Source of the DNA: Gemmatimonadales bacterium
GTDB lineage: Bacteria; Gemmatimonadota; Gemmatimonadetes; Gemmatimonadales; GWC2-71-9
Direction: 5' to 3'
Assembly: GCA_035602245.1 (NCBI GenBank)
Contig: DATNMO010000029.1
Span: 3,965 to 67,964 of the forward strand
DNA length: 64,000 nucleotides
Positions 3,728 to 39,465 of this stretch are shown in pieces. The notes under the pieces were generated by a model that saw only the letters and a list, made by a program, of their open reading frames with translations, had not been told where the DNA came from and did no database searches. Position 1 is the stretch's first letter. Every line of letters starts with the position of its first letter. The translations under genes and the position numbers were made by a program.

Positions 3728-3932
3728 CAAAAACCTCCGGGGGTACGAAGCGCCGGTCGCGCATCCGCAATCTAGACTAGGGGGTCACGGCCGCGGAAGC
3801 TGTGCGGGGCCTCACACGCTGAAACGCGCGAGCCCCCGACACCGTAGCTAACTCCAGTAGCGACTCACCCTTGCCAATTCCGGACCGCTGGGCTAACCTG
3901 TACCACCGCTCATCATAGGGATTCGAGGCCGC

Positions 3933-5138
3933 GTGCGCACAGAGACCCTGCAGCACATCGCGCTGTTCGACAAATGCAAGAACTTCACCCGGGCGCGCGA
4001 AGTCCAGGCTGCCGGGCTGTATCCGTACTTCAAACCCATCACCCGCTCCGAAGACACGGTCGTCATCATCGAGGGCCAAGAGCGGATCATGATGGGCTCG
4101 AACAATTACCTCGGGCTCACCCACCATCCGGACGTACTGGCCGCGGCCAAAGCGGCGTTGGAGCGTTACGGCTCCGGCTGCACCGGCAGCCGCTTCCTCA
4201 ACGGCACGCTGGATCTGCACGAGCAGCTCGAGGCCGAGCTGGCGGAGTTCTTCGGCAAAGAGTCCTGTCTCGTCTTCTCGACCGGGTACCAGGCCAATCT
4301 CGGCGTCATCTCCGGCCTCGTAGGCCGCAGCGACGTGGTGTTCTTGGACAAGCTGGACCATGCCTCGATCGTGGACGGCGCGAAGATGTCGCACGGCGAG
4401 ACCGTGCGCTTCAACCACGGCGACCTGGTGAGCCTCGAGCGGAAAATGCAGCGGATGCCTGAGGGCACCGGCATGATGATCGTCGTGGATGGCGTGTACT
4501 CGATGGAAGGCGACATCGCGGACGTGCCCGGCCTGCTCAAAGTCGCCCAGAAATACGGCGCCGCGCTCGCGGTTGATGACGCCCACTCCGTCGGCGTGCT
4601 CGGCCCGCGCGGGGACGGCACCGCGGCGCATTTCGATGTCGTCGACGATGTCGATCTGATCGTCGGCACGTTCTCCAAATCGCTGGCGTCGATCGGCGGC
4701 TTCGCGACGGGGACCGACTCCGTCATTCATTATCTGCGCCACCACGCCCGCCCGATGATTTTCACCGCTGCCCTGCCCCCGGCCAACACCGCCGGCGTGC
4801 TGGCCGCCCTGCACGTGATGCAGCGCGAGCCCGAGCGGCGGGAGCAGCTGTGGATCAATACCCGCCACCTGCAGGACGGCCTCCGCTCTCTGGGCTTCGA
4901 CATCGGGCCCACCGAGACGCCCATCGTGCCGGTCCTGATCGGTCCGCTCGAGAAGACGTTCCTGTTCTGGCGGCACCTGTTCGACGCCGGGGTCTTTACC
5001 AATCCTGTGGTGCCGCCCGCGGTGCCGCCGTCCCAGTGCCGGCTGCGCACCAGCCTGATGGCGACCCACACGGCCGATCAGATCGACCTCGCCCTCGAGG
5101 TCTTCGGCCGGCTGGGGAAAGAGCTGGGGGTTATCTGA
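3933..5138 (+). CDS. Alpha-oxoamine synthase family PLP enzyme, serine palmitoyltransferase-like (automatic annotation would probably say 8-amino-7-oxononanoate synthase or glycine C-acetyltransferase)
   Basis: GLYPYF, GSGCTGSRFLNGTLDLHEQLE, the PLP lysine in GTFSKSLASIGGF, and C-terminal RLRTSLMATHTADQID closely resemble bacterial SPT sequences as I remember them. Confidence 0.85.
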   Translation: MRTETLQHIALFDKCKNFTRAREVQAAGLYPYFKPITRSEDTVVIIEGQERIMMGSNNYLGLTHHPDVLAAAKAALERYGSGCTGSRFLNGTLDLHEQLEAELAEFFGKESCLVFSTGYQANLGVISGLVGRSDVVFLDKLDHASIVDGAKMSHGETVRFNHGDLVSLERKMQRMPEGTGMMIVVDGVYSMEGDIADVPGLLKVAQKYGAALAVDDAHSVGVLGPRGDGTAAHFDVVDDVDLIVGTFSKSLASIGGFATGTDSVIHYLRHHARPMIFTAALPPANTAGVLAALHVMQREPERREQLWINTRHLQDGLRSLGFDIGPTETPIVPVLIGPLEKTFLFWRHLFDAGVFTNPVVPPAVPPSQCRLRTSLMATHTADQIDLALEVFGRLGKELGVI

Positions 5139-5143
5139 CCGCA

Positions 5144-6256
5144 GTGGAGATCGTGCCCGTCTCCGACGGGCGCGGTCTCGATCGATTCATCGCCTTCCCG
5201 TACCACCACTACCGCGACGATCCCCTGTGGGTGCCGCAGCTACGCCGCGACATCCATACGCTGCTTTCGCCGAAGAAGAATCCGTTCTTTGAGCATGCCG
5301 AAGCCCGGTACTTCCTGGCGGTCCGACGGGCCGACGGGAAGGTGGTCGGGCGCATTGGCGCCATCAAGAACGACGCCCACAACCGTGAGCATAACGATCG
5401 CGTGGGGTTCTACGGATTCTTTGAATCCATCGACGATCAAGCCGTCGCAAACATTCTCTTCGATACGGCGGCCGCCTGGCTGCGGGCGCGGGGCTTCGAT
5501 ACCATGCGCGGTCCCATGAGTCCCTCGATCAATGACGAGTGCGGTCTGCTCCTCGAGAACAACGGCACGCCACCCTCGCTGATGATGCCCTACAACCCGC
5601 CTTACTATCGCGCCCTGCATGAGCGGTATGGGTTCACGAAGGCGAAGGACCTGCTCGCGTTCGAAGGGGGCGGAGCCACGGCGCCCGAGCGACTCCTGCG
5701 CCTCGCCGGGCGCGCCGCGGAGCGAGCCGGCGTCACGCTGCGCCCGCTCGAGATGAAGCGCTTCGCCGCGGAAGTCGAGTTGGTCAAGGCGCTATACAAT
5801 CGCGCCTGGGAGAAGAATTGGGGCTTCGTACCGCTGACCGAAGCGGAGATCGACCACCTCGCCAAACAGCTGAAGCCGATCGTCGTGCCGGATCTCGTGG
5901 TGTTCGCCGAGCGCGCGGGCGAAGTCGTGGGATTCGGCGTCGGCCTGCCCGACTTCAATCTCGCGCTCCTGCACAACCGATCGGGGCGGCTGTTCCCCGG
6001 GATCCTCAAGGTGCTGTGGCACGCCCGCAAGATTCATCGCGCCCGCATCCTGCTGCTCGGCGTCATTCCCGAGCTTCGCGGCCGCGGGATCGACGGCGTG
6101 CTGTACCACTGGGTGTGGAATGCGTGCGTCAAGCACGGCATGCCGCAGGGCGAAGGCGGCTGGATCCTCGAGGATAACGCGCCCATGGTCAAGGCCGCCG
6201 AGCAGCTCGGCTTCCACGTCTCCAAGGTTTACCGCGTCTACGACAAGCCGCTGTGA
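5144..6256 (+). CDS. GNAT-like N-acyltransferase (candidate bacterial ceramide synthase)
   Basis: The ORF frame continues right after the upstream stop, and I chose the GTG at 5144 (start uncertain). It is about 370 aa and reads FIAFPYHHYRDDPLWVPQLRRD...GRIGAIKNDAHN...GFYGFFES. The acyl-CoA N-acyltransferase-like C-terminal half contains RGRGIDGVLY. Confidence 0.6.
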   Translation: MEIVPVSDGRGLDRFIAFPYHHYRDDPLWVPQLRRDIHTLLSPKKNPFFEHAEARYFLAVRRADGKVVGRIGAIKNDAHNREHNDRVGFYGFFESIDDQAVANILFDTAAAWLRARGFDTMRGPMSPSINDECGLLLENNGTPPSLMMPYNPPYYRALHERYGFTKAKDLLAFEGGGATAPERLLRLAGRAAERAGVTLRPLEMKRFAAEVELVKALYNRAWEKNWGFVPLTEAEIDHLAKQLKPIVVPDLVVFAERAGEVVGFGVGLPDFNLALLHNRSGRLFPGILKVLWHARKIHRARILLLGVIPELRGRGIDGVLYHWVWNACVKHGMPQGEGGWILEDNAPMVKAAEQLGFHVSKVYRVYDKPL

Positions 6257-7224
6257 ACATCTTCGTGACCGGTGGCACCGGCTTTGTCGGTGCCCACCTG
6301 GTGAACGCGCTGCGCGCGCGCGGGGACTCCGTCACTTGCCTCGTACGCCGGCCGGCGCTGGCCGAGCGGCTCGGCTGGGGCGAGGGCGTGCGGCTCGTGC
6401 GCGGGGATCTCGATGATGCGAACGCATTGCGGCAGGGATGCGCCGACGCGGATATCGTGTTTCACGTCGCGGGAAAGATCGCGGCCCGGGACGCGGTCGA
6501 GTTCATGGCAACGAACCGCGACGGCACAGCCAACGTGCTCGAGGCGGCCGGAGAACAAGGGGTGGGGCGCTTCGTGCTCGTCTCCTCGCTCGCCTCGGCG
6601 GGGCCTACCGTGCCCGGTCAGCCGATCGATGAAACCCGTCCGCCCGCTCCGGTCACCGACTATGGGCGATCGAAACTCGCCGCCGAGGTGCTGGTGCGCG
6701 CGATGCGGGTGCCGTGGACCATCGTGCGTCCGCCAGTGGTGTATGGGGAATGGGACCGTGGCACGCTCAAGATCTTCCAGCTCACCAAGCGCGGCGTTGT
6801 GCCGGTGTTCGGCGACGGCTCGCAAGAGTTGTCGGTGATTCATGCCGAGGACCTCGCGCGCGCGCTGATCGCCGCTGGTAAGGGGGCGGCGGCCGCCGGC
6901 CACGTCTACTTCGCCGCCCATCCCGAACCGACGACCAGCCGCGAGCTCGTTCTGGCCTGCGGCCGGGCCCTCGGAACCACGCCGCGCGTCCTCCCCGTGC
7001 CCCCATTCGTGGCGCGCGGCGTGCTGTGGGTGGCCGGAGCCCTTGCGCATCTGGCCGGCCGCGCCACCTTGCTGTCGGCTGACAAGGGGAACGAATACCT
7101 CGCCCCGGCGTGGACGTGCCGGAGCGATGCGCTCACGCGCGATACCGGCTGGCGCGCCGAGATCGGCCTCGACGCGGGATTGCGCCGCGCCGCCGACTGG
7201 TACCGGGAGGTGGGATGGCTTTGA
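6253..7224 (+). CDS. NAD(P)-dependent epimerase/dehydratase family SDR (candidate ceramide/3-ketosphinganine reductase)
   Basis: NIFVTGGTGFVGAHLV is a Rossmann motif. There is a GTGA overlap with the upstream stop. Confidence 0.85.
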   Translation: MNIFVTGGTGFVGAHLVNALRARGDSVTCLVRRPALAERLGWGEGVRLVRGDLDDANALRQGCADADIVFHVAGKIAARDAVEFMATNRDGTANVLEAAGEQGVGRFVLVSSLASAGPTVPGQPIDETRPPAPVTDYGRSKLAAEVLVRAMRVPWTIVRPPVVYGEWDRGTLKIFQLTKRGVVPVFGDGSQELSVIHAEDLARALIAAGKGAAAAGHVYFAAHPEPTTSRELVLACGRALGTTPRVLPVPPFVARGVLWVAGALAHLAGRATLLSADKGNEYLAPAWTCRSDALTRDTGWRAEIGLDAGLRRAADWYREVGWL

Positions 7225-8150
7225 GCGGGCGGAAGTGGAGCGGAGGCGCGACACTGTGGCGATGTTTCACGGCAATCGACCTCGCCACGCTTGCCTATGT
7301 GGCAATCGCGACCGGCGCCGTGACCATTTCGTTCGAGGGCGACGCCATTCCCGGTTGGCCGTGGCTACTCACGGCGCATACGCTGATCGTGGTGCTGGTC
7401 GTGCTCGCCCCGCGGGCTCGCGCCGCCGGACCGGTGGGCCGGTTCCTCGGCGACTGGTATCCGATGCTGCTGTTGGGCGCGTTGTACGCAGAGATCGGGG
7501 TGCTCACGCTCGACGCCGGCTTCCAGAACGACCTGCCGATCCAACGGCTCGAAGCGTGGGTGTTCGGGTCGCAGGTCTCTTATCGCTGGATCCGCGAGTC
7601 GGCGAGCCCCCTGTTATCGTGGATGCTGCACGCGTGCTACGTCGCGTATTACCCGATTCTGTACGCCTCACCCCTGGGCCTGTGGATCGTCGGCCGGCGC
7701 GACGCGTCGCGGCACACGATCTTCGCGGTCATGGCCACGTTCTACCTCTGCTACGTCGTGTTCCTCTTTTTCCCGGTGGCGGGTCCGCGGTACGCATTCG
7801 ACGCCGCGCACAATGTCGCCACTGAGGTCTGGCCGGCGCGCTTCGCCTCCTGGCTCCTCGACCGGGGTGACTCGTGGGGTGCCGCCTTCCCGTCGTCCCA
7901 CGTGGCGGCGTCGGTGGTGGCCACCGGAATGGCCCTGCGCTACTGGCGCACTCTGGGGCTCGTGCTCCTGCCCTTCACCGCGGGCCTGCTCCTGGCTGTC
8001 GTGTACGGGCAGTTCCACTACGCGGTGGACGCGCTCGCGGGGTTGATGGTCGCCGCGCTGATGCTGGGCATCATGCAGACGGCCGAGGCCGCCGAGCGCC
8101 GGCGAGTGCCCGTCGGGGACTACGGCGTCGAGCGGGAGAGCAGCGCCTAG
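7215..8150 (+). CDS. PAP2 (lipid phosphate phosphatase / Aur1-like PAP2_3) family integral membrane protein
   Basis: It is a multi-TM protein with FPSSHVA (C2 motif) and FHYAVDALAG (C3 motif). The ATG at 7215 overlaps the upstream gene by 10 nt. Confidence 0.8.
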   Translation: MALSGRKWSGGATLWRCFTAIDLATLAYVAIATGAVTISFEGDAIPGWPWLLTAHTLIVVLVVLAPRARAAGPVGRFLGDWYPMLLLGALYAEIGVLTLDAGFQNDLPIQRLEAWVFGSQVSYRWIRESASPLLSWMLHACYVAYYPILYASPLGLWIVGRRDASRHTIFAVMATFYLCYVVFLFFPVAGPRYAFDAAHNVATEVWPARFASWLLDRGDSWGAAFPSSHVAASVVATGMALRYWRTLGLVLLPFTAGLLLAVVYGQFHYAVDALAGLMVAALMLGIMQTAEAAERRRVPVGDYGVERESSA

Positions 8151-9256
8151 TGCCCCGCGTGCTCGTGCATGTGCGCGAGTGGGGGACCTATGCCGAGGAA
8201 GTGCCGCAGGTCCTGCTGATACAGTGAGTCACTGGGGTCGGCGCTCGGCCATACAGCGCCGCGATCGGGAATGAACAGCCCCGCCACCACCCCCATCCCG
8301 CCGGCGGACACGACCTGTCCGGTAGGATTGTCATACACGACGCGCACACGATAGCGATGAGCGGGCGTAATGTGCGCGCCTCTCCGCGTGAGACCGTACA
8401 GCTTCCCGATAGGCACCGCCCCCTGTTTGCCGGTCGCACTGGACGCGGGCTCCCCATGCCACATCAGCTCCCCGGTCGTCGCATCCCACAACTCGATCGT
8501 CTGCCCGTATTCGTGCAGGTGCCCGCCGATGACGACGAGATCCCCTGGTACCGCCGGACTCCCCTCGTACGAGCGCTCACTGCGCCCCGGCGGCAAGTCG
8601 AATGACTTGTCGCCCACGGGGAAGGCGACGTCGAGCTGCCACCCAGATCCGGCAAACAGCGGCCAGGGACGGCCCTCGGGGATGTAATTCACAACCATGC
8701 GCACCCGCACGCCGCGATAGGCTTCACCCGTTGGATTGTGCAGCATCGCGTTGGCGAGGATGCGTTCCCCTTGCCTGAAGCGCGAGCCCACGAGGAGCCA
8801 GGGAAGCCGGACCACGCCCGTCTCCTGACCGGTCGCGAGCACACGCCGGGCAATCGGCAGGAACAGCTCGCGCTCGGACGGCTCCATCACATTGAAGTGA
8901 TGGATCGCGGCCGCGGGGAGCTGGCGCCCGGTCTCATCCACGGCTTCGGTACGAAATCCGAAGATGGCACCGGTGACCGGAAACTCCCCCACCGAGGCGG
9001 GGCGCTCCACACCGTGGTGGCCGGCCGCGCCCGCCGGCAAATCCACGGGCGGCAGCTCGATCGTGAGCTCGCCGCGGCCGGGATCCGCAGTGATCACGGC
9101 GGCCGGTAAGGCGCTCCAGTCCATGGTCGGCGGCGGCTTGTGCGTGAGCGTCGCAGCGGGAGCGGCGCTCCTCCACGCGGCGTAGCCGAGCCCGGCGACG
9201 AGGAGCGCGGCCAGCGCGACTGTGGATCGGCGAGCGATCAGTCTGAGGGTCGTCAC
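8147..9256 (-). CDS. Secreted or anchored hypothetical protein with PHM/DBH-like copper monooxygenase ligand pattern and a His-rich tail
   Basis: An N-terminal hydrophobic anchor is present. The pattern is HH (119-120), H173, HLH (246-248) and M321. The C-terminus is HMHEHAGH. Confidence 0.6.
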   Translation of the reverse strand: MTTLRLIARRSTVALAALLVAGLGYAAWRSAAPAATLTHKPPPTMDWSALPAAVITADPGRGELTIELPPVDLPAGAAGHHGVERPASVGEFPVTGAIFGFRTEAVDETGRQLPAAAIHHFNVMEPSERELFLPIARRVLATGQETGVVRLPWLLVGSRFRQGERILANAMLHNPTGEAYRGVRVRMVVNYIPEGRPWPLFAGSGWQLDVAFPVGDKSFDLPPGRSERSYEGSPAVPGDLVVIGGHLHEYGQTIELWDATTGELMWHGEPASSATGKQGAVPIGKLYGLTRRGAHITPAHRYRVRVVYDNPTGQVVSAGGMGVVAGLFIPDRGAVWPSADPSDSLYQQDLRHFLGIGPPLAHMHEHAGH

Positions 9257-9316: not shown

Positions 9317-11230
9317 TCAGGACCCCATGTTGCGCAAGCGGTGCCGCTGACCGGGGGTGACGAGGTCCCGTTCCACCGTGTCACGAACGACGCGCGCCAG
9401 GAAGGCATACCCACGGGGCTCCGCAACTAGCCAGCGCGCCCACTCGAGTTCGTCGAGCGCGGCCGCCAACTCTTCCTCCCCGAGACCGGTCGCGCGGCCG
9501 AGCCGGGCCGGGGTCACCCGCTCACCCAGCGCCGCGGCCGCCGCCAGGACCTGTTGTGCCGCGAGCGGGAGCCTGCGAAATCCTACACGAATCGCGCCCA
9601 CGACCGCCTCGGGCAAGTCCCCGGGGAGCGTCTCATCGAGCGTGTGCAGTGGCCGCGGCCACGCCGCCCGTGTTCGGTCGAGGTCGAGACCGAGCGCGAC
9701 GGCATGGAGCAGCTCGACGGCGAGCAGCGGCAGCCCCGCGGAGTCGGTGGCGATGCGGCGCGTGACCCGGTCCAATTCGTCCTCGCCGTAGCGCGGCAGA
9801 GCCCAGCGCGCCAGCTCGCGCAAGGCCTCCGGGGACAGCGGGGCCAGGCGCAGCACCACCCCGGGCACGTCACGGCCGATGCGCGACTGGAGATCATCGA
9901 GCTCCGCGCGCTCCGGGTGGAAGGCGCGCGTGAGCAAGAGGCACAGCGGCGCGGTGGCGAGGTCCCGCGCGGCGGCGACGAGGGCGAGCAGTGACTCGCG
10001 ATCGAGCCAGTGCGCGTCGTCCACCAGGAGCAGGACTGGCTGCTCCGCGGTGACGGCGCCGAGCACGTCCCGCAGCGCGCGACCGGGAGGGATCATGTCC
10101 GCTACGACGTCACGCACGGCCGATCCGAAACGCTCGGCCCATTCGGGAACGCGCGCCGCGAACGCGGCGAGCGCTGGTGCGGGAGCAGCCGCGACTCCCG
10201 GGACGTCGAGCAATCCACCCCGCGCCAATGCGAACACCCCGCTCCACGGCTCCCCTGCGTCCGCCTCGACCGCGCGCACGACAGCGCTGGCGGCGCCGTC
10301 CAGCTGTGCCCGCGCCCGCGCCTCCTCCGCGAGACGACTCTTTCCCGTTCCCGCATCACCCGAAACGAGCGCCACCGTCCCGCGCCGGTCCCGCCGACAG
10401 TCGCCCCAGACGCTCGCCAGCCGCTGGAGCTCGGCCTCCCGCCCTACGAGCGGCGCGCGCCGCGACTCGGCGCCTCTGGGCGAAGGGTCGTCGGGCCGGC
10501 GGCGGAACTGTCCCCCTCCCCGCTCGCGCCCAATCCGGTCCGCGAGCGTCTTCGTCTCGGCGTCGGGAGTACTTCCCACGTCTGCCGTGAGCCGCGCGAC
10601 AAACGCCTCGTAGGCGGCCGATGCGGCCGCGCGGTCGCCCGCCAGCGCAAGCGCACGCATGGTCGTGCGGATGACGACATCGGCGTGGGGGTCGAGCGCG
10701 AGCGCGCGGCGCGCCAGTCCCACCGCTTCCGTGGCCTGCCCGCGGGCGAGCTGCACTTCGGCCTGCCGCGTCAGCGCGTCCACCGCTCGCGCGCGCCACA
10801 GCGTCCGTTCAGCCGCCAGCCAGTGCTCGAAATCGGAGACGCCCGGTACGGTGAAGCCTTCGAGGAACTCTCCGGCGATCAGCTCGCACGCTCCTGGCCA
10901 GTCGCCCGCCGCCGTCAGCTGCTCGAAGCGCTCGGTGTCCAGCTCGACGCTGGTCGCCGCCAGGCGAATCTGATCGGCGCGGGTCTCGATCCCGGCCTTG
11001 CCCGTCGCGCGCCGCAGCACCCCCAACGCCACGTTCAACGAATGGCGCGCCTTCGATTCGGGCTTGTCCGGCCAGAAGAGACCTATGAGGTGATCGCGGG
11101 CGCGGGCGCCTTTCGGGGAACGCGCGAGATAAAGGAGAAGCGCAAGGTTTTTGCGCCACAAGAGCCTCGCCGGCGCCGCGTCGCCGTCCACGCTGACCTC
11201 CACGGTACCGAGGGTGCGGCAGCGGATCAC
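9317..11230 (-). CDS. SARP/BTAD-domain transcriptional regulator fused to an AAA/STAND-type ATPase
   Basis: The GTG at 11230 overlaps the kinase stop (GTGA). The BTAD region reads LLWRKNLALLLYLAR...FEHWLAAERTLWRARAVDAL. The Walker A is SGDAGTGKSRLAEE, followed by a helical C-terminal region. Confidence 0.8.
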   Translation of the reverse strand: MIRCRTLGTVEVSVDGDAAPARLLWRKNLALLLYLARSPKGARARDHLIGLFWPDKPESKARHSLNVALGVLRRATGKAGIETRADQIRLAATSVELDTERFEQLTAAGDWPGACELIAGEFLEGFTVPGVSDFEHWLAAERTLWRARAVDALTRQAEVQLARGQATEAVGLARRALALDPHADVVIRTTMRALALAGDRAAASAAYEAFVARLTADVGSTPDAETKTLADRIGRERGGGQFRRRPDDPSPRGAESRRAPLVGREAELQRLASVWGDCRRDRRGTVALVSGDAGTGKSRLAEEARARAQLDGAASAVVRAVEADAGEPWSGVFALARGGLLDVPGVAAAPAPALAAFAARVPEWAERFGSAVRDVVADMIPPGRALRDVLGAVTAEQPVLLLVDDAHWLDRESLLALVAAARDLATAPLCLLLTRAFHPERAELDDLQSRIGRDVPGVVLRLAPLSPEALRELARWALPRYGEDELDRVTRRIATDSAGLPLLAVELLHAVALGLDLDRTRAAWPRPLHTLDETLPGDLPEAVVGAIRVGFRRLPLAAQQVLAAAAALGERVTPARLGRATGLGEEELAAALDELEWARWLVAEPRGYAFLARVVRDTVERDLVTPGQRHRLRNMGS

Positions 11231-14028
11231 CGCGCGCAGCTCCCTTCCCCGCGCAGCCGCCGCGCCTCCGCAACGAGGGGTTCGTACGACCGCTCTGCAT
11301 GCACCCACAGTTCGAGGATGCGTCCGAGGTATTCGCAGCTGCCCCGCGCATTGCCGGCCCGTTGCGCCAGCGTGCCCCGGCGCCACCGGCTCCACGCGCC
11401 CAGCGCCCAGTCGATCTCCACCGCCTGGAGGGTGTCGCTGAGCCATCCGGCGAAGTCCGAGTTCTCATACCACAACCACGAGCGGTTAGCGGAGTCGGCG
11501 CGACTCCGTCCCTCGAGCCAGTCGGCGCGTCGGACATGCAGCACGGCGCGCGCAAAGGGGTCGCCGAGGTGCCGCCACTCGTCGAAGCGGAGGAGTGGCG
11601 CGGTTCGGGCGAGGGCCGCCTCCACGTCGCCCCGCGCGGCGAGCTCCAGGCCCGCAAGCAGCTCATCGAGCCGTTCCCACGCCGAATCGCCGGCCGCGAT
11701 GCCACGGAGGCGACTGCGCCACCGGCGTCCGGCGGACGAATCGCCGCGCGCGTACGCGTCCACGGCGCTCGCCCACGCCGCGCGTGCGGCGACGGGGCCG
11801 CGCCTACGAGCGGCAGCTGCCAGGCCCCTCCGGCCGCGGTCCACTTCCACGGGCGGAGTTCCCGGCACGCCGAGCGCGGCCGCCAGCACCCGCCACTCCA
11901 ACGCCTCAAGCTGCCCAGCAGGTGTCCCGACGAGCGTGGCGGTGGAGTCGAAGTGCGCCACTGCCGCGGCCGGGCGGCCAAGCTCCACGAGCGCCAAGGC
12001 CTGTGCTTCGTGTCCCGCAGCGCCGGACAATTTCCTGCCCAACGCGAGCTGGAGCTCGGGAACGTCGAATCCCAGCCCGAAGCGCGCCGTGCGCGCCACA
12101 TCGCGTTCAACGTCGCTCGGCATAGGCGGCAGGCTCTCCGGCGTGAATCGCGCTGCGTACGCGACTTCGAGACTCGCGGCGATGCTGAGATCGGGTTCGT
12201 CGCCCCCCAGACCCGATCCCCGCGCCTGTTTCAACCGGTCGAGCGCGCGCCGCGCGTCGTCCCGACGGCCCAGCCGGATCAGCGCCCACACGAGTTGATC
12301 GTGCGCAGGAGCGAGAGATGGATCCTGCGCGACAGCCTGTTCGAGCACTGCGGCGCCGCTGTCGAGCGGGATGCCGGCCAGCGGACCCCGGTGCATCAAT
12401 TCCGCTCCATACAAGAGCCGCGCGTACGGCTCCCTGGGATACAGTGCAAGCGCCTGTTGGTAGATCCGGTAGCGAGGTTCTCCGTGTGGAGCGAGCTCGG
12501 CCGCGATCAGCAGAGAATCCAGAGGATTGAGATAGCGGCTCTGGCGCGCCAAGACGTCGCGCAAGTCCACGCCCGGCGGCATGCGGCGCCACCGCTGCGC
12601 GTTGGCAAGCCGCCACGCCGCTCGCGCAAAGCTCGGATCGAGCTGCAGCGCCTGACGAAAGTGCCGCGCCGCCTCACTCCAGGCATCACGCCGGAAGGCA
12701 TCCTCGCCCTGGAGGAATTCGGCGAGGGCCGCCGCATTGAGGCCCCAGGTCGGCCGCGGCCCGTACTTTGCCAGCAACTCCGGATGAAACCAGCGCAACA
12801 GCTGCATGACGATTCTGTCCGCCAACTCCACCTCGGTGCCCGCCGGGCCGGCCACGGAGGCGCTGTACAGCCGTCGATCCAACGAGTCGCGCACCTCGAG
12901 GCGCACGAACAGCGAGTCGTTGCGCTCCGCGACCGACCCACCGACGCGAGCGGCGACGCGAACCGGCACCGCGACTTTGGCCCCGGCGTGTGCCTCGCGT
13001 TGCTTGAACGCCACGTTCCTGGGCACGAGGGCGATTTGCGGGAACAGCGCGAGTTTGTCGGACACGATCCAGGCGAGCTCGTTGCCGACGCGCGGCGGCG
13101 TCACACCCTCGACGTCGAATGGCACCACCATGAGCTCGCGGAACGAGCTCGTCGGTGTGCAGAAGCCGAGCCGCTCGCAAAACACGAAGACTCCCACGAC
13201 GACCGCGACAAAGGCCAAGACGAGCACGGCGGGCCACACGAGCGGCTGCGGACGAGGAGCCCACAAGGCACGCTGGAACGCAGCCGCGTCCGCGAAGCGG
13301 TCTCCGGGATACCACGCCAGGGCTTTGCGCAGGGCGCGGCGGAGGGGGCGCGGAATGCCGGACCAATCCGCCGCTTCGGGACGACTCAAGATCGACCAGT
13401 GCCGCCCGGTGATCGCCTCGTACACCACCATCGCGACGGCGTACAGATCCGTGCGCGCGGTGACCTCGCCGCCCGCCGCCTGCTCCGGCGGCATGTATTC
13501 GAGCGTGCCCGGCGTCTGACCGGGCGTGGTGAGCGGCGGCGCTCCCGCGGATTTCGCGATCCCGAAGTCGGTGAGGATCGCCCGCTCTAGCTCGAGAATG
13601 ATGTTGTCCGGCTTGACGTCGCGATGCACGATGCCGTGGGCGTGCGCGGCCTCGAGCGCCGACAGAATGTCGCGGGCGACTTGCACCGCTTGACGGACCG
13701 ACAAGGGGCCGCGGCTCAACCTGTCGGCGAGCGTCTCACCTTCGAGATGCGCCATCACATAGAAGGAAATGCCCTGCCGGTCGTCGACGTAGTGAATGGG
13801 GACGATGCTCGGGTGCTTAAGCTTGGCGAGGAGCTGCGCTTCGCGCACAAACCGCTCGGTTGCCTGCGCGCTCGCGAGTTCAGGCCGGAGGACCTTGATG
13901 GCGACGAGCCGATCGAGACGCGTATCCCGGCCCAGAAAGACCATTCCCATCCCGCCACTGCCGAGCTCGCGCTCGACCTCGTACTCGGGCGCCAAGGCGG
14001 CGCGGAGCCGCTCGAGGAAGGTGCTCAT
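11227..14028 (-). CDS. Membrane Ser/Thr protein kinase with large TPR-like extracytoplasmic/C-terminal region
   Basis: The kinase signatures are ELGSGGMGMVFLGRD, VAIKVL, HRDVKPDNI, DFGIAK and YMPPE. One TM segment (WPAVLVLAFVAVVVGVFVF) is followed by helical repeats. Confidence 0.9.
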   Translation of the reverse strand: MSTFLERLRAALAPEYEVERELGSGGMGMVFLGRDTRLDRLVAIKVLRPELASAQATERFVREAQLLAKLKHPSIVPIHYVDDRQGISFYVMAHLEGETLADRLSRGPLSVRQAVQVARDILSALEAAHAHGIVHRDVKPDNIILELERAILTDFGIAKSAGAPPLTTPGQTPGTLEYMPPEQAAGGEVTARTDLYAVAMVVYEAITGRHWSILSRPEAADWSGIPRPLRRALRKALAWYPGDRFADAAAFQRALWAPRPQPLVWPAVLVLAFVAVVVGVFVFCERLGFCTPTSSFRELMVVPFDVEGVTPPRVGNELAWIVSDKLALFPQIALVPRNVAFKQREAHAGAKVAVPVRVAARVGGSVAERNDSLFVRLEVRDSLDRRLYSASVAGPAGTEVELADRIVMQLLRWFHPELLAKYGPRPTWGLNAAALAEFLQGEDAFRRDAWSEAARHFRQALQLDPSFARAAWRLANAQRWRRMPPGVDLRDVLARQSRYLNPLDSLLIAAELAPHGEPRYRIYQQALALYPREPYARLLYGAELMHRGPLAGIPLDSGAAVLEQAVAQDPSLAPAHDQLVWALIRLGRRDDARRALDRLKQARGSGLGGDEPDLSIAASLEVAYAARFTPESLPPMPSDVERDVARTARFGLGFDVPELQLALGRKLSGAAGHEAQALALVELGRPAAAVAHFDSTATLVGTPAGQLEALEWRVLAAALGVPGTPPVEVDRGRRGLAAAARRRGPVAARAAWASAVDAYARGDSSAGRRWRSRLRGIAAGDSAWERLDELLAGLELAARGDVEAALARTAPLLRFDEWRHLGDPFARAVLHVRRADWLEGRSRADSANRSWLWYENSDFAGWLSDTLQAVEIDWALGAWSRWRRGTLAQRAGNARGSCEYLGRILELWVHAERSYEPLVAEARRLRGEGSCAR

Positions 14029-14083
14029 GGACCGCGGGCGAATGTAACCGTTCGTCGCGACGCCCGCCGGACCTCTCGCCGGG

Positions 14084-14127
14084 CCCACAGAAAAACAAAG
14101 CGGCCCCGGGGGCTTCCCCGGGGCCGC
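14084..14127 (-). terminator. Rho-independent terminator downstream of the cupredoxin gene
   Basis: A perfect 12-bp GC stem (GCGGCCCCGGGG, loop GCTT, CCCCGGGGCCGC; 14100..14127) is followed on the minus strand by CTTTGTTTTTCTGT. Confidence 0.75.
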
Positions 14128-23977: not shown

Positions 23978-24518
23978 GGCGCACCTCCTCGGCGCCGGCG
24001 CCGCGCAGCAGCGCTTCGACGCTGCCGGCTTTGTCGGAGCCCGCGGGGACGAACACGCCGAACTTGTCGTTCGTGAACCGTGGGTCCGTCTGAATCGTGC
24101 CGAGGCGCCGTGCGGCGAACGCCGCATTGAACAGGATCCCCAGGATGGTGGACAGCGCGCCGAACAGGATCGTCATCTCGAACATGATGACGACGTAGGG
24201 GGGCACCGATCCGATCGGCTTTCCCCCCACCACGAGAGGCCAGTCATACGACATCCACAGCGTCAGCCACGCACCGACGGCGCAGCCCACGATGCCGCCA
24301 ATCAGCGTGAACATCCGTACCGGGCTGACCGGTTGCCCGAGCGCGGCTTCGATTTCGTGACGCGGGATCGGCGAGTACACCGTGAAATCGGTGTGCCCGC
24401 CCGCACGAAGCTTCTGGATCGCCTCGAGGGTGCCGTCGAGGTGGCCGAACACACCCAGGACGCCGGGCGTGGGCGGCGGGCGGAAGATGTCGTGCAGCGG
24501 CTTGGGCAACGGGATCAT
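23970..24518 (-). CDS. actD: Alternative complex III subunit ActD (DUF3341-like membrane subunit)
   Basis: The 182-aa protein begins MIPLPKPLHDIF...GVLGVFGHLDGTLEAIQKLRAGG and has two TM segments. There is an ATGA overlap with the actC stop. The track ORF 23970..25649 is an artefactual upstream extension. Confidence 0.8.
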   Translation of the reverse strand: MIPLPKPLHDIFRPPPTPGVLGVFGHLDGTLEAIQKLRAGGHTDFTVYSPIPRHEIEAALGQPVSPVRMFTLIGGIVGCAVGAWLTLWMSYDWPLVVGGKPIGSVPPYVVIMFEMTILFGALSTILGILFNAAFAARRLGTIQTDPRFTNDKFGVFVPAGSDKAGSVEALLRGAGAEEVRRG

Positions 24519-25852
24519 CGGTGCGCCCTCGCCGCGGCTCGCCGGGGCGGGGCGAGCACTTCCTTGACCTCGGTGATCGAGACCGCGGGGAAGTTCTTCA
24601 CGAACAGGAGGAACCACATGAAGAACCAACCGAAGCTGCCGGCCATGATGCCCCAATCGGCCCATGTCGGGTTGTAGACGGCGTTCGCCCACGGCTCGTA
24701 CGGCTCGCCGGCCAGCGACACGACGATGATCACGTAGCGCTCGAACCACATCCCGATGTTCACGAAGATCGAAATCACGAACAGGGCGGTGAGATTGGTA
24801 CGGATTTTCTTGATCCACAGGAGCAACGGCAGGAACGCGTTGCAGATGATCATCGTCCACGACGCCCACCAGTACGGCCCGAAGGCCCGGTACCAAAAGG
24901 CGGCGCGCTCGCTGGGATTGCCGGAGAACCAGGCGATGAAGTACTCGCACACGTAGGCGTAGCCGACGATCGAGCCCGTCAGCAGGCAAAGTTTCGCCAG
25001 GTTCTCGAAGTGATGCCCGGTGACGAGGTCTTCGAGGTGAAACAGTTTCCGGATCGGCACGAGCAGCGTGATCACCATCGCGACGCCCGAATAGATGGCG
25101 CCGGCGACGAAGTAGGGGGCGAAGATCGTGGCGTGCCAACCGGGGACGATGGCCATCGCGAAGTCCCAGGACACGACGCTGTGCACGGACAGCACGAGCG
25201 GGGTGGCGAGCGCGGCGAGGTACAGATAGCCGCGGGTGTAATGGCGCCACTGCTCGTTCGTGCCCGCCCAGCCAAGCGAGGTGAGCGTGTACAGTTTCTT
25301 GCGCCACCCGGTCGCGAGATCGCGGATCGCCGCGATGTCGGGGATCAAGCCCATGATCAAGAACACGGTCGAGACGGTGAAGTACGTCCCGATCGCGAAC
25401 TCGTCCCAGATGAGCGGCGACTTGAAGTTGGGCCACAGGCCGCGCTCGTTGGGATACGGGATCAGCCAGTAGAAGTACCACTGCCGGCCAATGTGGATCA
25501 GCGGAAACAGCCCGGCCGTCATCACGGCGAACACCGTCATGGCTTCGGCGGTGCGGTACACAGCGGTGCGCCATCCGGAGCGGAACAGGAACAGGATTGC
25601 CGAGATCAGCGTCCCCGAGTGCGCGATACCCACCCAGAACACGAAGCACGTGATGAATACCGCCCAGTACACCGGGTGCGAGTAGCCCGCGAGCCCGAGG
25701 CCGTAGCGGAGCAGGTAGATCAGCGTGATGATCCCGACCGCGAGCAGCGCCACGGCGGCGCCGAGCAGCAGGAAGTAGCCCCGGCTGGGGTTGCCGAGCG
25801 TCCGCGCGATCGTGCGCGTGACGTAGTCGTACGTCAGGCGCGGCTCAGCCAT
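24515..25852 (-). CDS. actC: Alternative complex III subunit ActC (NrfD/polysulfide reductase-like quinol-interacting membrane subunit)
   Basis: It is a 445-aa polytopic protein. It overlaps the actB end by 8 nt. Confidence 0.85.
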   Translation of the reverse strand: MAEPRLTYDYVTRTIARTLGNPSRGYFLLLGAAVALLAVGIITLIYLLRYGLGLAGYSHPVYWAVFITCFVFWVGIAHSGTLISAILFLFRSGWRTAVYRTAEAMTVFAVMTAGLFPLIHIGRQWYFYWLIPYPNERGLWPNFKSPLIWDEFAIGTYFTVSTVFLIMGLIPDIAAIRDLATGWRKKLYTLTSLGWAGTNEQWRHYTRGYLYLAALATPLVLSVHSVVSWDFAMAIVPGWHATIFAPYFVAGAIYSGVAMVITLLVPIRKLFHLEDLVTGHHFENLAKLCLLTGSIVGYAYVCEYFIAWFSGNPSERAAFWYRAFGPYWWASWTMIICNAFLPLLLWIKKIRTNLTALFVISIFVNIGMWFERYVIIVVSLAGEPYEPWANAVYNPTWADWGIMAGSFGWFFMWFLLFVKNFPAVSITEVKEVLAPPRRAAARAHR

Positions 25853-28832
25853 CGGCGACGACGCGCGCCAGGTAGGTGACGGCGGGCTTCGTATTGAGGC
25901 CGGCCAGCACGTGGTAGCCGCGCGGGTTCCCGGCCAGGCGGTAGACCTCGGAGCGGCGGTCGTTCAGGTCGCCGAAGACGATCGCCTCCGACGGACACGA
26001 CTGCGCGCACGCGGGCACGATGTCGCCGTCGCGCACATTGCGGTCCTGGATCCGCGCCTGGTTCTGCGCCCCGCGGATCCGCTGCACGCAGAACGTGCAC
26101 TTCTCCATCACGCCCTTCTCGCGCACCGTCACGTCGGGGTTGAGCAGCATCGACAGCGGCTCCGGCCACGCCTCCCACTCCCCGCCGCGCTCCGCGTAGT
26201 TGTACCAGTTGAAGTAGCGGACCTTGTAGGGGCAGTTGTTGGAGCAGTAGCGCGTGCCGACACAGCGGTTGTAGACCTGACCGTTCAGGCCATCGGGCGT
26301 GTGGTAGGCCGCATACACCGGACACACCGGCTCGCACGGCGCGTTGCCGCACTGCTGGCACATCATCGGCGAGTTGACGGCGCCCTGCGGCTGGCCGTGC
26401 TCGTCGGTGAGCCAGTAGCGCTCGATGCGGATCCACGACATTTCGCGGCCGCGCTGCATCAGGTCCTCGCCCACCGTCGCGAGGTTATTCTCGGCGTAGC
26501 AGGCGGTGACACAGGCCGAGCAGCCGGTGCATTTCGAGAGGTCTACGGCAAGCCCCCACCGGGGCTGCTCACCGCGGTAATCCCCGAGCTCCGCTTTTTC
26601 GTGTTGCCGTTCGGCCCACCACTCGACCGCTTCGGCCGCGTACTCCGGCGTCTCCGGATGGTGGAACGGGGCATCGCCCGCCCGGAGCGACTTGGCCCGC
26701 GCGACGCTGAGCACCTCCACGGTGCCTTTGCCGCGTTCGCGGGGGCTGCCCTCGGTCGTCACGATCGTGCGATGGTCGCCAGTCTTGGTCGCCGTGGCGC
26801 GGACGGCGAAGTTGCGGCCGCCGTAGCCGTTCGCCTCCGCGCCCAGCAGCTCGAAGGCATTCGCGGACCGGTCCTTGGCGTAGCGGCCGTAAGCCGAGTG
26901 CCCCTGCCCTGTGGGGACCGCAAGAACGTCCGGCCGCACCGAGTGGGTGATCCAGGCCGGGAATTTCTGCGCGCCGAACGGCGACTTCAGCAATAGAAAG
27001 TCGCCCGTCGCCACGCCCCACTTGGCCGCCGTGTCGGGATGCACCTCCACCCAACTATGCCAAGCGATCTTCGAGACCGGGTCGGGGAGCTCCTGCAGCC
27101 ACGGTTTGTTGGCGCCGCGGCCGTCATGGAGCACGGGATGGGGGAAGACGACGACCGTTTGCTCGGTCTCACCCCCCGGAGTGACAGGCGAGAGCGCAGG
27201 GTCGATTCCGGCGGCGGTGTCCGCAAGGCGCACGGCGCGCGTCGGCGCGGCGCCATACCGCCCGCCATACTGAACCGCTTCCATCCAGAACTGCTCGAAG
27301 CTCTTCCCCGTACCGAGGCGCCGATGCAGCTCGCGCCACTTGGCCTGGACGTAGTCCTGGAACGTTCCCACGCGGCCCGCGAGGCCGAGCACCACGTCGC
27401 CTGTGGGGCGCGTGTCGAACACCGGCTGTACCACCGGCTGCTGGAGGGCATACACGCCCGCGCGGGGCCGGCTGTCTCCCCACTGCTCGAGCGGGTGGTG
27501 ATCGGGCAAGATCAGGTCGCAGGCGGCCGCGGTTTCGTCCATGTAGGACGAGAAGCTCACCTTGAATGCGACTTTGCCGAGCGCCTGCTGGAACGCTCCG
27601 GGAAGTGAGTGCGCCGGGTTCGCACCGTGCACCAGCAACAGCGCAACGCTGCCCGCCGCCATGTCGGTGGTGAGCTTCGCCAGGTCGCCAAACGTGCCCG
27701 CCTCGCCGATTGCCAGATCGGCGCCGAACCGCACCAGCGTGCCGACGCCCCCGACCACGTAGTTGAGAATATTGACGGCGGCGACGATCTCGGCGCCGTT
27801 CGGGTATTGGGCCGCCATGCCGCCGGCGACGGCGAGCCCGCCTTTGGCGTTGGCGAACTCCTTCGCCAAACGCACGATCGCTGCTTGCTCCACACCGATC
27901 GCGGCGGCGACGGCACGCGGCGTGTGGCGCCCCAGCAGGGCCGCCAGGCGTCCGACGTCGGCCGGGACGGGCGCGAGGCGTTGGCTGACGATCACCTGCG
28001 CGAGGGCCAGCGCGAGCGTCCCCTCGGTACCGGGCAGTGTGGCGACCCACTCGTCGGCGTTCATGCCGGTGAGTGACATCCGCGGGCCCACGTACACGAA
28101 TTTCGCCATCGACGCGGGCCGGCCTGCGTCGAATCCGTGGGCGCGTGCGAAGCCGTTCTGGAACTCGACCGGCGACAGCCAGGTGTCGAGGAGATCGGCG
28201 CCGAACGACAGCACGTACTTTGCGTTGGCGAAGTCGTAGGATGGTACCGCCGCCGTCCCAAAGGCGAGACGGTTCCCGGCACGCAACGCTTCGAAGCCGA
28301 ACGGCTCGTAGCTCAGGCGGCGGCCGCCCACCTGCTTCATCCACTCGTCCACCAGATCGCCGAACGACGACGCCTCGGCGCCGCTGAGAAAGACGATGCC
28401 CTTCCCCCGTGCCTCACGGACTTTCGCCCCGAGCCGCTGGATCGCGCCTTGCCAGTCCATCGCCTCGAAGGCGCCGCTCGCGTTGCGCACCATCGGATTC
28501 GTAATCCGGTCGGGATTGTACAGCCCCTGGATTGCCGCCTGCCCGCGCGCGCACAGGCGGCCGCGGTTGATCGGCGACTCGGGGTTGCCTTCGAGCTTGA
28601 CGGCGCGCCCTTCGCGCACGCGCACCTGGATCCCGCAGCCGGCGGCGCACTCGCGGCAGGTCGACGCGTAGTACGTGGCAATGCCGGGGATCTGATCCTC
28701 AGGCTGGATCAGATAGGGGATCAGCTTTTCCGTGGGCTCGGGGCCGATGCCACAAGCGGAAAGGGCCGCGGCGCCGACGCTCGTGACGCCGAGAACTTTG
28801 AGGAACCGTCTGCGATCGATCGCGTCGCTCAT
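25845..28832 (-). CDS. actB: Alternative complex III subunit ActB (molybdopterin-oxidoreductase-like domain fused to a 4Fe-4S ferredoxin domain)
   Basis: The Tat signal is DRRRFLKVLGVTSVGAAALSAC. An MopB-like N-terminal two-thirds is followed by cluster motifs CTGCSACVTAC, CQQCGNAPCEPVC, CSNNCPYK and CAQSCPSEA. Confidence 0.9.
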   Translation of the reverse strand: MSDAIDRRRFLKVLGVTSVGAAALSACGIGPEPTEKLIPYLIQPEDQIPGIATYYASTCRECAAGCGIQVRVREGRAVKLEGNPESPINRGRLCARGQAAIQGLYNPDRITNPMVRNASGAFEAMDWQGAIQRLGAKVREARGKGIVFLSGAEASSFGDLVDEWMKQVGGRRLSYEPFGFEALRAGNRLAFGTAAVPSYDFANAKYVLSFGADLLDTWLSPVEFQNGFARAHGFDAGRPASMAKFVYVGPRMSLTGMNADEWVATLPGTEGTLALALAQVIVSQRLAPVPADVGRLAALLGRHTPRAVAAAIGVEQAAIVRLAKEFANAKGGLAVAGGMAAQYPNGAEIVAAVNILNYVVGGVGTLVRFGADLAIGEAGTFGDLAKLTTDMAAGSVALLLVHGANPAHSLPGAFQQALGKVAFKVSFSSYMDETAAACDLILPDHHPLEQWGDSRPRAGVYALQQPVVQPVFDTRPTGDVVLGLAGRVGTFQDYVQAKWRELHRRLGTGKSFEQFWMEAVQYGGRYGAAPTRAVRLADTAAGIDPALSPVTPGGETEQTVVVFPHPVLHDGRGANKPWLQELPDPVSKIAWHSWVEVHPDTAAKWGVATGDFLLLKSPFGAQKFPAWITHSVRPDVLAVPTGQGHSAYGRYAKDRSANAFELLGAEANGYGGRNFAVRATATKTGDHRTIVTTEGSPRERGKGTVEVLSVARAKSLRAGDAPFHHPETPEYAAEAVEWWAERQHEKAELGDYRGEQPRWGLAVDLSKCTGCSACVTACYAENNLATVGEDLMQRGREMSWIRIERYWLTDEHGQPQGAVNSPMMCQQCGNAPCEPVCPVYAAYHTPDGLNGQVYNRCVGTRYCSNNCPYKVRYFNWYNYAERGGEWEAWPEPLSMLLNPDVTVREKGVMEKCTFCVQRIRGAQNQARIQDRNVRDGDIVPACAQSCPSEAIVFGDLNDRRSEVYRLAGNPRGYHVLAGLNTKPAVTYLARVVADG

Positions 28833-28848
28833 CGCTGTCCCGCTCCGT

Positions 28849-29493
28849 CTAGTAGTGACACACGGTGCAGTCGCGGCTCACCTTGTTCTCCACATGGCAG
28901 CGCACGCACCACCCCATGCGCAGCGTCGAGACCTGGTACACCTGCGGCATTCGCTGGACGTCACCGTGGCACTTCGTGCACGCCTGCGTCCCCAGCGCCT
29001 TGATGTGGCGTTGGTGCGGGAAACGCACGAAGCCGGGGAGCGCGTGGATGCGCGTCCATTCCGGCGGCTTCTTCTCCCGCCACGCATCGCGGACCTTCGT
29101 GATCTCGGCTTGGTGCGACGGCGTCGAGCCGCCGATCAGCTGATGGCAACCAAAACACGTCTGCAGCGAGGGGATGCCCGGCTCACTCGCCACCGCGGCC
29201 GAGTAATGGCAATACATGCACGGGATCTGGTCTTGGCCGGCGTGAATGTCGTGGCGGAAGAAGATCGGCTGGCGGGGACCCTCGAGATCGCCGGTGTCGC
29301 TGACGACCGGCGCCTGGTAGCGACCCGCAGGAGTCTGGGCCGCCAAGGGGAAGGCGAGAACCAGCGACACCACGACCGCAGCTGAACGCAGATGGCCTCG
29401 ATGACGAAGCAGTGGTTCGGTTCGGTGTGGCCCAACAACGACGCGCAGGCCCCCGAATTTATCCTGGCCGGGGAACGGCGCACAAGACGTCAT
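28849..29493 (-). CDS. actA: Alternative complex III subunit ActA (pentahaem cytochrome c)
   Basis: There are five CxxCH motifs (CMYCH, CFGCH, CTKCH, CVRCH, CTVCH). The hydrophobic anchor is AAVVVSLVLAFPLAAQ. The only ATG is at 29493, directly after the upstream stop, so the start is uncertain. Confidence 0.8.
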   Translation of the reverse strand: MTSCAPFPGQDKFGGLRVVVGPHRTEPLLRHRGHLRSAAVVVSLVLAFPLAAQTPAGRYQAPVVSDTGDLEGPRQPIFFRHDIHAGQDQIPCMYCHYSAAVASEPGIPSLQTCFGCHQLIGGSTPSHQAEITKVRDAWREKKPPEWTRIHALPGFVRFPHQRHIKALGTQACTKCHGDVQRMPQVYQVSTLRMGWCVRCHVENKVSRDCTVCHY

Positions 29494-39206: not shown

Positions 39207-39465
39207 AGAGCACCAGTCCCTTCGCCGCGAGCCCGTCCAGGAGCGTGCAGACGTCCGGCTCCAGGCCGGTCGCTCCGTACCGTTGCTCGAGGGTCGCCAC
39301 GATGGCGGCGAGCGAACGAACCCCATCGCACAGCCCCAGGATCTCCGCTCCAGTGGGGTTCAGAATGACGAGTCCCTCGGGATACAGCAGGACGTGGCGT
39401 TTGCGGACATCGTCCCATTGCAGCCGCGCCTTCGCCGCGATCCGGGGCACGGCCGCCGCGCCCAC
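39196..39465 (-). CDS. pqqD: PQQ biosynthesis peptide chaperone PqqD
   Basis: This ~89-aa protein reads ...LLYPEGLVILNPTGAEILGLCDGVRSLAAIVATLEQRY. The start is the GTG at 39465 (or the TTG at 39474). It overlaps pqqE by 11 nt. Confidence 0.85.
   Translation of the reverse strand: MGAAAVPRIAAKARLQWDDVRKRHVLLYPEGLVILNPTGAEILGLCDGVRSLAAIVATLEQRYGATGLEPDVCTLLDGLAAKGLVLYGP

Follow-up and report, generated by a model that had tools for sequence, protein, structure and literature searches.

Bacterial sphingolipids shape outer membranes, sensitivity to phages and antibiotics, and host signalling, and the enzymes that supply their head groups are known for a few model species only. The enzymes of the ceramide pathway of Caulobacter and B. 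fragilis are experimentally supported (PMC11087976; bioRxiv 10.1101/2023.05.23.541633); in Caulobacter the genes are spt (CC_1162), cerS or bcerS (CC_1154 = CCNA_01212) and cerR (CC_1164 = CCNA_01222) (PMC11087976, PMC11324152). Here, we describe an operon of four genes in a 64,000-nt stretch of DNA ("the window"; assembly GCA_035602245.1, contig DATNMO010000029.1, positions 3,965 to 67,964) from a soil-dwelling member of the Gemmatimonadales, whose genome has a GC content of about 68%. Putative counterparts of the three ceramide genes are followed in this operon by a gene for an AUR1-like membrane protein. We consider it rather likely that the four genes specify a phosphosphingolipid pathway, in which ceramide would receive a phospho-head group from bulk phospholipid.

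The first three genes of the operon belong to the same families as the Caulobacter trio, i.e., an alpha-oxoamine synthase (AOS), a YghO-type GNAT of about 370 amino acids (aa) and an extended SDR, and the homology was established via syntenic clusters of Roseomonas and E. coli. The layouts differ. Unlike Caulobacter, the window operon contains no gene for AcpR or AasR, and its GNAT gene shares the operon with spt, whereas in alpha-, beta- and gamma-proteobacteria cerS is always located in a separate operon (PMC11324152). The head group is also made differently: the route to ceramide phosphoglycerate in Caulobacter involves a ceramide kinase and additional enzymes, and no PAP2 protein is present there.

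As for the fourth gene, a bacterial AUR1 homologue, BT_1522 of Bacteroides thetaiotaomicron, has been genetically validated as an inositol phosphorylceramide (IPC) synthase (PMC9246714, PMC8791184). By description, gene 4 likewise encodes a bacterial AUR1-like protein, with dihydroceramide as the predicted acceptor of a phospho-head group. However, BT_1522 belongs to an inositol/phosphatidylinositol (PI) cluster (MIPS, PIP synthase, phosphatase) that is separate from spt, whereas gene 4 is coupled to ceramide genes and has no inositol genes nearby. An initial reading of this DNA made from the letters alone (the sequence-only reading) had called the head-group step not well defined in bacteria, which is only partly true since BT_1522 was validated. 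A BLAST search with the eukaryotic ethanolamine phosphorylceramide (EPC) synthase gave no candidate in Bacteroides (PMC8791184), and we found no later identification of a bacterial EPC-type synthase in the literature.

Yeast Aur1, the catalytic subunit of IPC synthase (PDB 9vj3/9vj4/9ivc; PMC13133130), has in common with gene 4 the PF14378 domain, an aligned His-His-Asp triad, FPxxxP and FPSxH...HYxxD motifs and a multi-helix architecture. The two proteins are about 15% identical, and no gene for a Kei1-like partner is present in the window. Aur1 resides in the Golgi and is strictly PI-specific, whereas gene 4 would act in the bacterial inner membrane with a donor, phosphatidylethanolamine (PE), phosphatidylglycerol (PG) or PI, that is only predicted. 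The pathway type as such is ordinary: the ceramide trio is well known, its clustering has been noted in many phyla (PMC11334938), and there is a validated bacterial AUR1-type enzyme. What appears to be new is the phylum, Gemmatimonadota, for the ceramide pathway, the layout that brings a cerS-type gene together with spt, and an AUR1-like gene that is translationally coupled to ceramide genes and recurs in this company in several phyla.

Layout of the four-gene operon

The features of the operon are as follows.

3731..3932, plus strand: presumed promoter region, about 200 nt of intergenic DNA, divergent with an M6 peptidase gene; assigned by position alone
3933-5138, plus strand: gene 1, putative spt, AOS of 401 aa; Pfam Aminotran_1_2
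5144-6256, plus strand: gene 2, bcerS-like GNAT N-acyltransferase (putative) of 370 aa; Pfam Acetyltransf_1
6253-7224, plus strand: gene 3, cerR-like extended SDR of 323 aa; Pfam Epimerase
7215-8150, plus strand: gene 4, AUR1-like PAP2_3 integral membrane protein of 311 aa with 8 transmembrane helices; Pfam PAP2_3

The sequence-only reading had placed four plus-strand genes at 3933-8150, with 5 nt between the first two, a GTGA shared by the second and third and 10 nt shared by the last two, and had seen no acyl carrier protein (ACP) or acyl-ACP synthetase gene next to them. The open reading frames and the junctions bear this out. The TGA of spt (5136-5138) is followed after 5 nt by the GTG of the GNAT gene at 5144; the stop codon of the GNAT gene and the start codon of the SDR gene overlap by 4 nt in GTGA at 6253-6256; and the ATG of the PAP2 gene at 7215 lies upstream of the SDR stop codon (7222-7224), which makes an overlap of 10 nt. 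An alternative GTG at 5153, chosen by some gene callers, gives a GNAT of 367 aa. No ACP or acyl-ACP synthetase gene was found within 10 kb of the operon. With gaps this tight (+5, -4 and -10 nt) and an order that is kept in relatives, the four genes are probably co-transcribed as one operon.

The fraction of GC at third codon positions is 0.83-0.88 across all four genes. None of them has a paralogue within the window. For each of the four proteins, databases contain hundreds of homologues with at least 70% identity, and the names given to close homologues place the organism in the Gemmatimonadales. No open reading frame was found in 3731..3932, a scan of this upstream region with the sigma-70 consensus returned no match, and the promoter and terminator scan gave no information.

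The four genes recur in other Gemmatimonadales with their order and overlaps unchanged. Homologues of gene 4 from other Gemmatimonadales are about 80% identical to it, and a second clade, at about 40% identity, still keeps the four-gene order and the 10-nt overlap. Such a recurrence is far more than chance.

The putative ceramide genes

Gene 1 was scored with NCBIfam models and against solved structures. Among the former, SerpalmtaseCFB gave 539 bits, Spt Beta 434 and Spt Alpha 369, and the models for bioF and Kbl gave 397 and 384. None of the curated equivalog cut-offs was reached (539/640 for CFB, 434/500 for Beta and 369/670 for Alpha). The top match in the PDB was the serine palmitoyltransferase (SPT) of Sphingobacterium multivorum (3a2b/8guh; 439 bits), an enzyme from another phylum; the Sphingomonas SPT scored 318 bits, and AOS enzymes of other kinds scored 302 (BioF/Kbl-type), 283 (Kbl), 247 (cysteate acyltransferase) and 214 (BioF). 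K249, H143, D215, H218 and R372 of gene 1 align with K265, H159, D231, H234 and R390 of the S. paucimobilis SPT, though this set of the pyridoxal phosphate lysine and catalytic His/Asp/His/Arg residues is common to all AOS enzymes. At the position of Arg378 of the S. paucimobilis enzyme gene 1 has Val, as does the Sphingobacterium enzyme. These comparisons make gene 1 a probable serine palmitoyltransferase of the CFB/acyl-CoA type. Since the operon lacks dedicated ACP or AasR genes and the scores are CFB-like, the acyl donor is probably acyl-CoA, as described for Bacteroidota (PMC11324152).

Pfam Acetyltransf_1 covers only the C-terminal part of the gene 2 product (residues 217-357), and there is no NCBIfam model for this GNAT family. 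When 1.8 billion cluster representatives were searched with a profile, 2261 clusters (50% identity) were retrieved at E<=1e-30, nearly all of them 365-390 aa long. Three metagenomic proteins are natural fusions that link the family to the pathway: AOS with GNAT (P0256, 780 aa), GNAT with an AMP-binding enzyme (P0374, 940 aa) and GNAT with SDR (P0346, 467 aa), the last of which could be a gene-calling artefact.

Gene neighbourhoods were scanned with the GNAT, taking one genome per species and the best 80 loci, none of which is from Caulobacter. The loci come from Gemmatimonadota, Ignavibacteria, Bacteroidota, Eisenbacteria, Zixibacteria, Planctomycetota, Acidobacteriota, Cloacimonadota, Latescibacterota, Binatia, Chloroflexota and other taxa. 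Of the 71 loci that have enough upstream sequence, 60 carry an Spt-like AOS gene immediately before the GNAT gene on the same strand; an SDR gene flanks the AOS-GNAT pair in 57 of the 80 loci, and the complete AOS-GNAT-SDR trio is present in 53 of the 80, from more than 10 phyla.

When plasmid records were searched with the GNAT by tblastn, clusters of Roseomonas and E. coli were retrieved. The GNAT of Roseomonas plasmid pRo-1 is 43% identical to that of the window over its full length (E 1e-82). It sits between LptF/G-like permeases plus a desaturase on one side and a nucleotidyltransferase on the other, an order that mirrors CC_1156, CC_1155, cerS (CC_1154) and CC_1153 of Caulobacter (order per PMC11324152). 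E. coli YghO is also a full-length homologue of the window GNAT (35% identity). Based on these syntenic homologues, gene 2 is predicted to encode a bCerS-type N-acyltransferase.

Both clusters are of interest in their own right. The Roseomonas gilardii one, on the 424-kb pRo-1 (L086, 1776-10901), is a Caulobacter-like sphingolipid cluster with genes for an acylglycerol kinase, a CDP-alcohol phosphatidyltransferase, LptF/G-like permeases, a sterol desaturase-family protein, the CerS-type GNAT and a nucleotidyltransferase; its CerS-type gene is labelled 'dATP pyrophosphohydrolase', probably a misannotation. In E. coli NZ_MG591698.1 (L085, 4525-10122), yghO is divergent from an operon of fatty acyl-AMP ligase, SDR, ACP and AOS genes and is accompanied by lptF/lptG paralogues. 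This arrangement is aasR-cerR-acpR-spt, a Caulobacter-type sphingolipid cluster in E. coli strains.

The SDR of this E. coli operon is a full-length match to the product of gene 3 (29% identity over residues 5-311, E 9e-34). Gene 3 matches Pfam Epimerase with 134 bits and carries the Rossmann motif GGTGFVG at its N-terminus. Caulobacter CerR has been reported to be periplasmic (PMC11087976); no N-terminal signal peptide is evident in gene 3, which starts at the Rossmann strand, and the E. coli homologue starts likewise. Its homology and its company suggest that gene 3 encodes a CerR-type extended SDR that travels with the AOS-GNAT pair across phyla. There is no solved structure for bCerS or CerR, and PDB searches returned generic GNAT and epimerase matches.

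The family assignments of the sequence-only reading fit these results. It had called gene 1 very similar to bacterial Spt, and gene 1 scores higher with Spt than with Kbl or BioF in both NCBIfam (539 vs 397 and 384) and the PDB (439 vs at most 302). A GNAT-like acyltransferase of ~370 aa and a reductase of the NAD(P)-dependent epimerase/dehydratase family were recognised correctly, as judged by length and by Pfam. The proposed correspondence in family with Spt, bCerS and CerR is upheld by the Spt scores, by the 43% identity of the GNAT to the gene in the cerS position of Roseomonas and by the homology of the two reductases, that of the window and that of the E. coli cluster.

The AUR1-like protein encoded by gene 4

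PF14378 (PAP2_3), a broad and mostly uncharacterised family, matches gene 4 with 62 bits (cut-off 27), and an AUR1 fragment scores 87 bits with the same model. No NCBIfam model matched gene 4, and source annotations label it a membrane-associated phospholipid phosphatase. The C2 and C3 motifs of PAP2 proteins that the sequence-only reading had pointed out are present as PSSH (residues 226-229) and HYAVD (268-272), and both are invariant in the family.

PAP2_3 neighbours of ceramide genes were aligned across phyla (alignment A5). Invariant positions are D22, Y28, P83, D106, Y142, P187, G190, F225-P-S-x-H229, H268-Y-x-x-D272 and G276. Among solved structures, the A5 profile matched yeast AUR1 best (E 9e-7, profile positions 47-281, or 235 of 292), while LpxE (E 2e-5) and PgpB were matched over only about 70 residues, from C2 to C3. 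H229, H268 and D272 align with H255, H294 and D298 of AUR1, a triad that is essential by mutagenesis (PMC13133130). Searches of the PDB with the single sequence and with a 20-sequence profile returned LRRC8A, which we rejected as chance hits; only the cross-phylum profile reached AUR1.

In PAP2 hydrolases, the basic residues of C1 and C3 hold the phosphomonoester. The C1 motif KxxxxxxRP was not found in the gene 4 family, where the equivalent loop reads FPVAGP(R/N/Y/H), and R192 at this place is not conserved. The phosphate-binding Arg of the C3 motif SRxxxxxHxxxD is absent from gene 4 as well: six residues before the C3 histidine H268 there is a nearly invariant V262, whereas LpxE has Arg and AUR1 has Thr. 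As can be seen from A5, no Lys or Arg is invariant; the nearly invariant R242 is located just after C2, at a predicted cytoplasmic helix end.

An AlphaFold2 model of gene 4 built from a 118-sequence alignment has eight long helices (pLDDT 88, pTM 0.87); an earlier model from a shallow alignment (pLDDT 59.5) was discarded as poor. AUR1 was the top Foldseek match (9vj4_A: E 5.5e-4, TM-score 0.55/0.61, 291 columns; 9ivc_A: E 6.6e-4, 0.52/0.49, 301 columns). It was followed by LpxE (E 0.014, TM-score 0.71 on its 165 residues, 170 columns), SMSr (E 0.028, 0.36/0.41, 255 columns) and B. subtilis PgpB/YodM (E 0.037, 0.42/0.61, 239 columns). Support is moderate, not strong, that the overall fold of gene 4 is AUR1-like beyond the five-helix PAP2 core. 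Short loops and termini contain 15 Lys and Arg residues and long loops 6, a count that, by the positive-inside rule, predicts a topology in which both termini are inside and C2 and C3 face the periplasm. It had been suggested from the letters that the fourth gene could transfer a phospho-head group onto ceramide; gene 4 is AUR1-like by profile and by fold, and we take it as a candidate ceramide phospho-head-group transferase, its activity being predicted.

A profile scan found a PAP2_3 gene adjoining the ceramide genes in 26 of the 29 Gemmatimonadota loci and in 11 of the 51 others. The latter are from Acidobacteriota (L023, L076), Eisenbacteria (L029, L037), Planctomycetota (L072), Cloacimonadota (L067), Latescibacterota (L062) and two unclassified metagenome-assembled genomes (L052, L061), with weak matches in Zixibacteria (L077) and Cyclobacteriaceae (L082). 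Past the PAP2_3 gene the neighbours differ by taxon and include peptidases, sensor kinases, Rce1-like proteases and radical SAM enzymes. No kinase, nucleotidyltransferase, CDP-alcohol transferase or inositol-phosphate synthase gene was found beyond PAP2_3 in the loci examined, and no inositol-synthesis genes were found in the window. The lack of head-group synthesis genes alongside gene 4 fits a donor that is an existing membrane phospholipid, as for AUR1 and sphingomyelin synthases. A gene of the Rce1-like CAAX protease family follows PAP2_3 both in a Longimicrobiales locus (L070, 12078-12797) and in one of the unclassified genomes (L052, 6593-7438).

Predicted pathway, alternatives and flanking genes

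The pathway that we propose would proceed in four steps. Spt would join L-serine and a long-chain acyl thioester, probably acyl-CoA, to give 3-ketosphinganine; the bCerS-type GNAT would N-acylate the long-chain base; and the CerR-type SDR would reduce the 3-keto group to yield dihydroceramide, the order of the last two reactions being borrowed from the Caulobacter model. Homology and conserved synteny argue for these three steps. The fourth, which is suggested by remote homology, fold, motif pattern and gene linkage, would take place at the His-His-Asp site of the AUR1-like enzyme at the periplasmic face, or outer leaflet, of the inner membrane. There, H268, activated by D272, may attack the phosphodiester of PE, PG or PI to form a phospho-histidine intermediate with release of diacylglycerol, and H229 may assist the C1 hydroxyl of ceramide in accepting the phospho-head group.

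Several points weigh against this pathway. The best Spt score of gene 1 is below the cut-off (539 vs 640), so its serine specificity is not assured, and the tie of genes 2 and 3 to characterised bCerS and CerR runs through syntenic homologues. The similarity of gene 4 to AUR1 is remote (about 15% identity, Foldseek E ~6e-4), and hhalign of the gene 4 family with a single AUR1 fragment gave weak support (probability 24%, E 8e-4). The same triad is present in PAP2 phosphatases, and LpxE fits the catalytic core well (TM-score 0.71). An adjacent PAP2_3 gene is missing from 40 of the 51 ceramide loci outside Gemmatimonadota. Finally, we found no literature report of Spt or sphingolipids in Gemmatimonadota, in a search that did not extend to a 2022 survey of nine phyla.

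The main alternative is that genes 1-3 make ceramide and gene 4 is a lipid phosphate phosphatase acting on ceramide-1-phosphate, sphingoid-base phosphate, phosphatidylglycerophosphate, undecaprenyl pyrophosphate or lipid A. It is suggested by membership in the PAP2 superfamily with its common triad, by the annotations as membrane-associated phospholipid phosphatase, by the profile match to LpxE over C2-C3 (E 2e-5) and by Foldseek matches to LpxE, B. subtilis PgpB/YodM and acid phosphatases. Yet the family conserves neither the C1 Lys/Arg nor the C3 Arg, and phosphatases align with it along only about 70 residues in sequence and 170-240 columns in fold, whereas the alignment with AUR1 spans nearly the whole length. 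No ceramide kinase that could make a monoester substrate is encoded nearby, and translational coupling to ceramide genes across phyla is hard to reconcile with a housekeeping phosphatase. We regard a phosphatase as unlikely.

Two further alternatives concern the chemistry of gene 1. The AOS could use another amino acid, e.g., alanine or glycine, to make a 1-deoxy-type base and a different N-acyl amino-lipid, with gene 4 acting on another substrate. The scores below the Spt cut-offs would agree with this, 1-deoxyceramides are reported to arise from alanine through this set of enzymes (PMC11334938), and the very large YghO-type GNAT family has a member in E. coli, a species for which no sphingolipid is established. 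We nevertheless find this improbable, since gene 1 resembles characterised SPTs far more than it does other AOS classes, co-localisation of AOS, GNAT and SDR genes is the literature criterion for Spt-like function (PMC11334938), and a phospho-transferase partner requires a C1 hydroxyl, which only a serine-derived base supplies. Highly improbable is the sulfonolipid (capnine-type) pathway that the sequence-only reading had offered as its own alternative, with the AOS as cysteate acyltransferase, a CapC-like SDR and a GNAT that N-acylates capnine. Both pathways use an AOS and an SDR, and the cysteate-C-fatty acyltransferase in the PDB is detectably related to gene 1, but at 247 bits, compared with 439 for SPT. 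Moreover, no cysteate synthase (CapA-like) gene is present in the operon or its flanks, and a sulfonate at C1 would leave no acceptor for the co-transcribed AUR1-like enzyme. We rejected capnine on these scores and this chemistry.

If the operon does specify a phosphosphingolipid pathway, the head group may be specified further. No model in NCBIfam matches the subfamily of gene 4, its relationship to AUR1 is distant, and its members stand beside ceramide genes in six or more phyla. We tentatively suggest that this subfamily could be a bacterial ceramide phosphoethanolamine or phosphoglycerol synthase, with bulk PE or PG as donor in the periplasmic leaflet, and not an IPC synthase. On this suggestion, which we hold with less than even confidence, the abundant soil phyla Gemmatimonadota, Acidobacteriota and Eisenbacteria would be producers of phosphosphingolipids.

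The operon is a minimal, self-contained candidate pathway of four genes with no need for an ACP, a kinase or a nucleotidyltransferase, and it could therefore be transferred to E. coli as a single unit. Should the proposed pathway be correct, it would provide a tractable bacterial model for phospho-transfer of the AUR1 or sphingomyelin synthase type and a genomic marker of phosphosphingolipid production, and Gemmatimonadota, an important soil phylum that is poorly represented in culture, would contribute to the sphingolipid pool of soil lipidomes.

The operon is surrounded by genes for an M6 peptidase, a hypothetical protein, a BTAD/AAA regulator and a Ser/Thr kinase, and no further lipid genes were found in the remainder of the window. 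A convergent open reading frame of 369 aa on the minus strand (8147-9256) has no Pfam match, overlaps the stop of the operon by 4 nt and is kept near the operon in related contigs (L001-L003). Downstream, at 9317-14088 on the minus strand, are the BTAD/AAA_16 regulator and the Ser/Thr kinase with TPR repeats. This pair is missing from a related species (L001), in which a gene for a PF01663 type I phosphodiesterase (10929-12365) adjoins the PAP2 gene instead.

Farther away, the minus strand of the window encodes an NrfD-family membrane subunit and a molybdopterin/4Fe-4S oxidoreductase (24515-28877), which resemble part of an alternative complex III-type module; in L087 this pair is accompanied by genes for ActD and cytochrome c. 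Also on the minus strand, at 37333-39359, an ABC transporter ATPase gene lies beside that of a radical SAM/SPASM protein, and the two may be a peptide-maturation pair.

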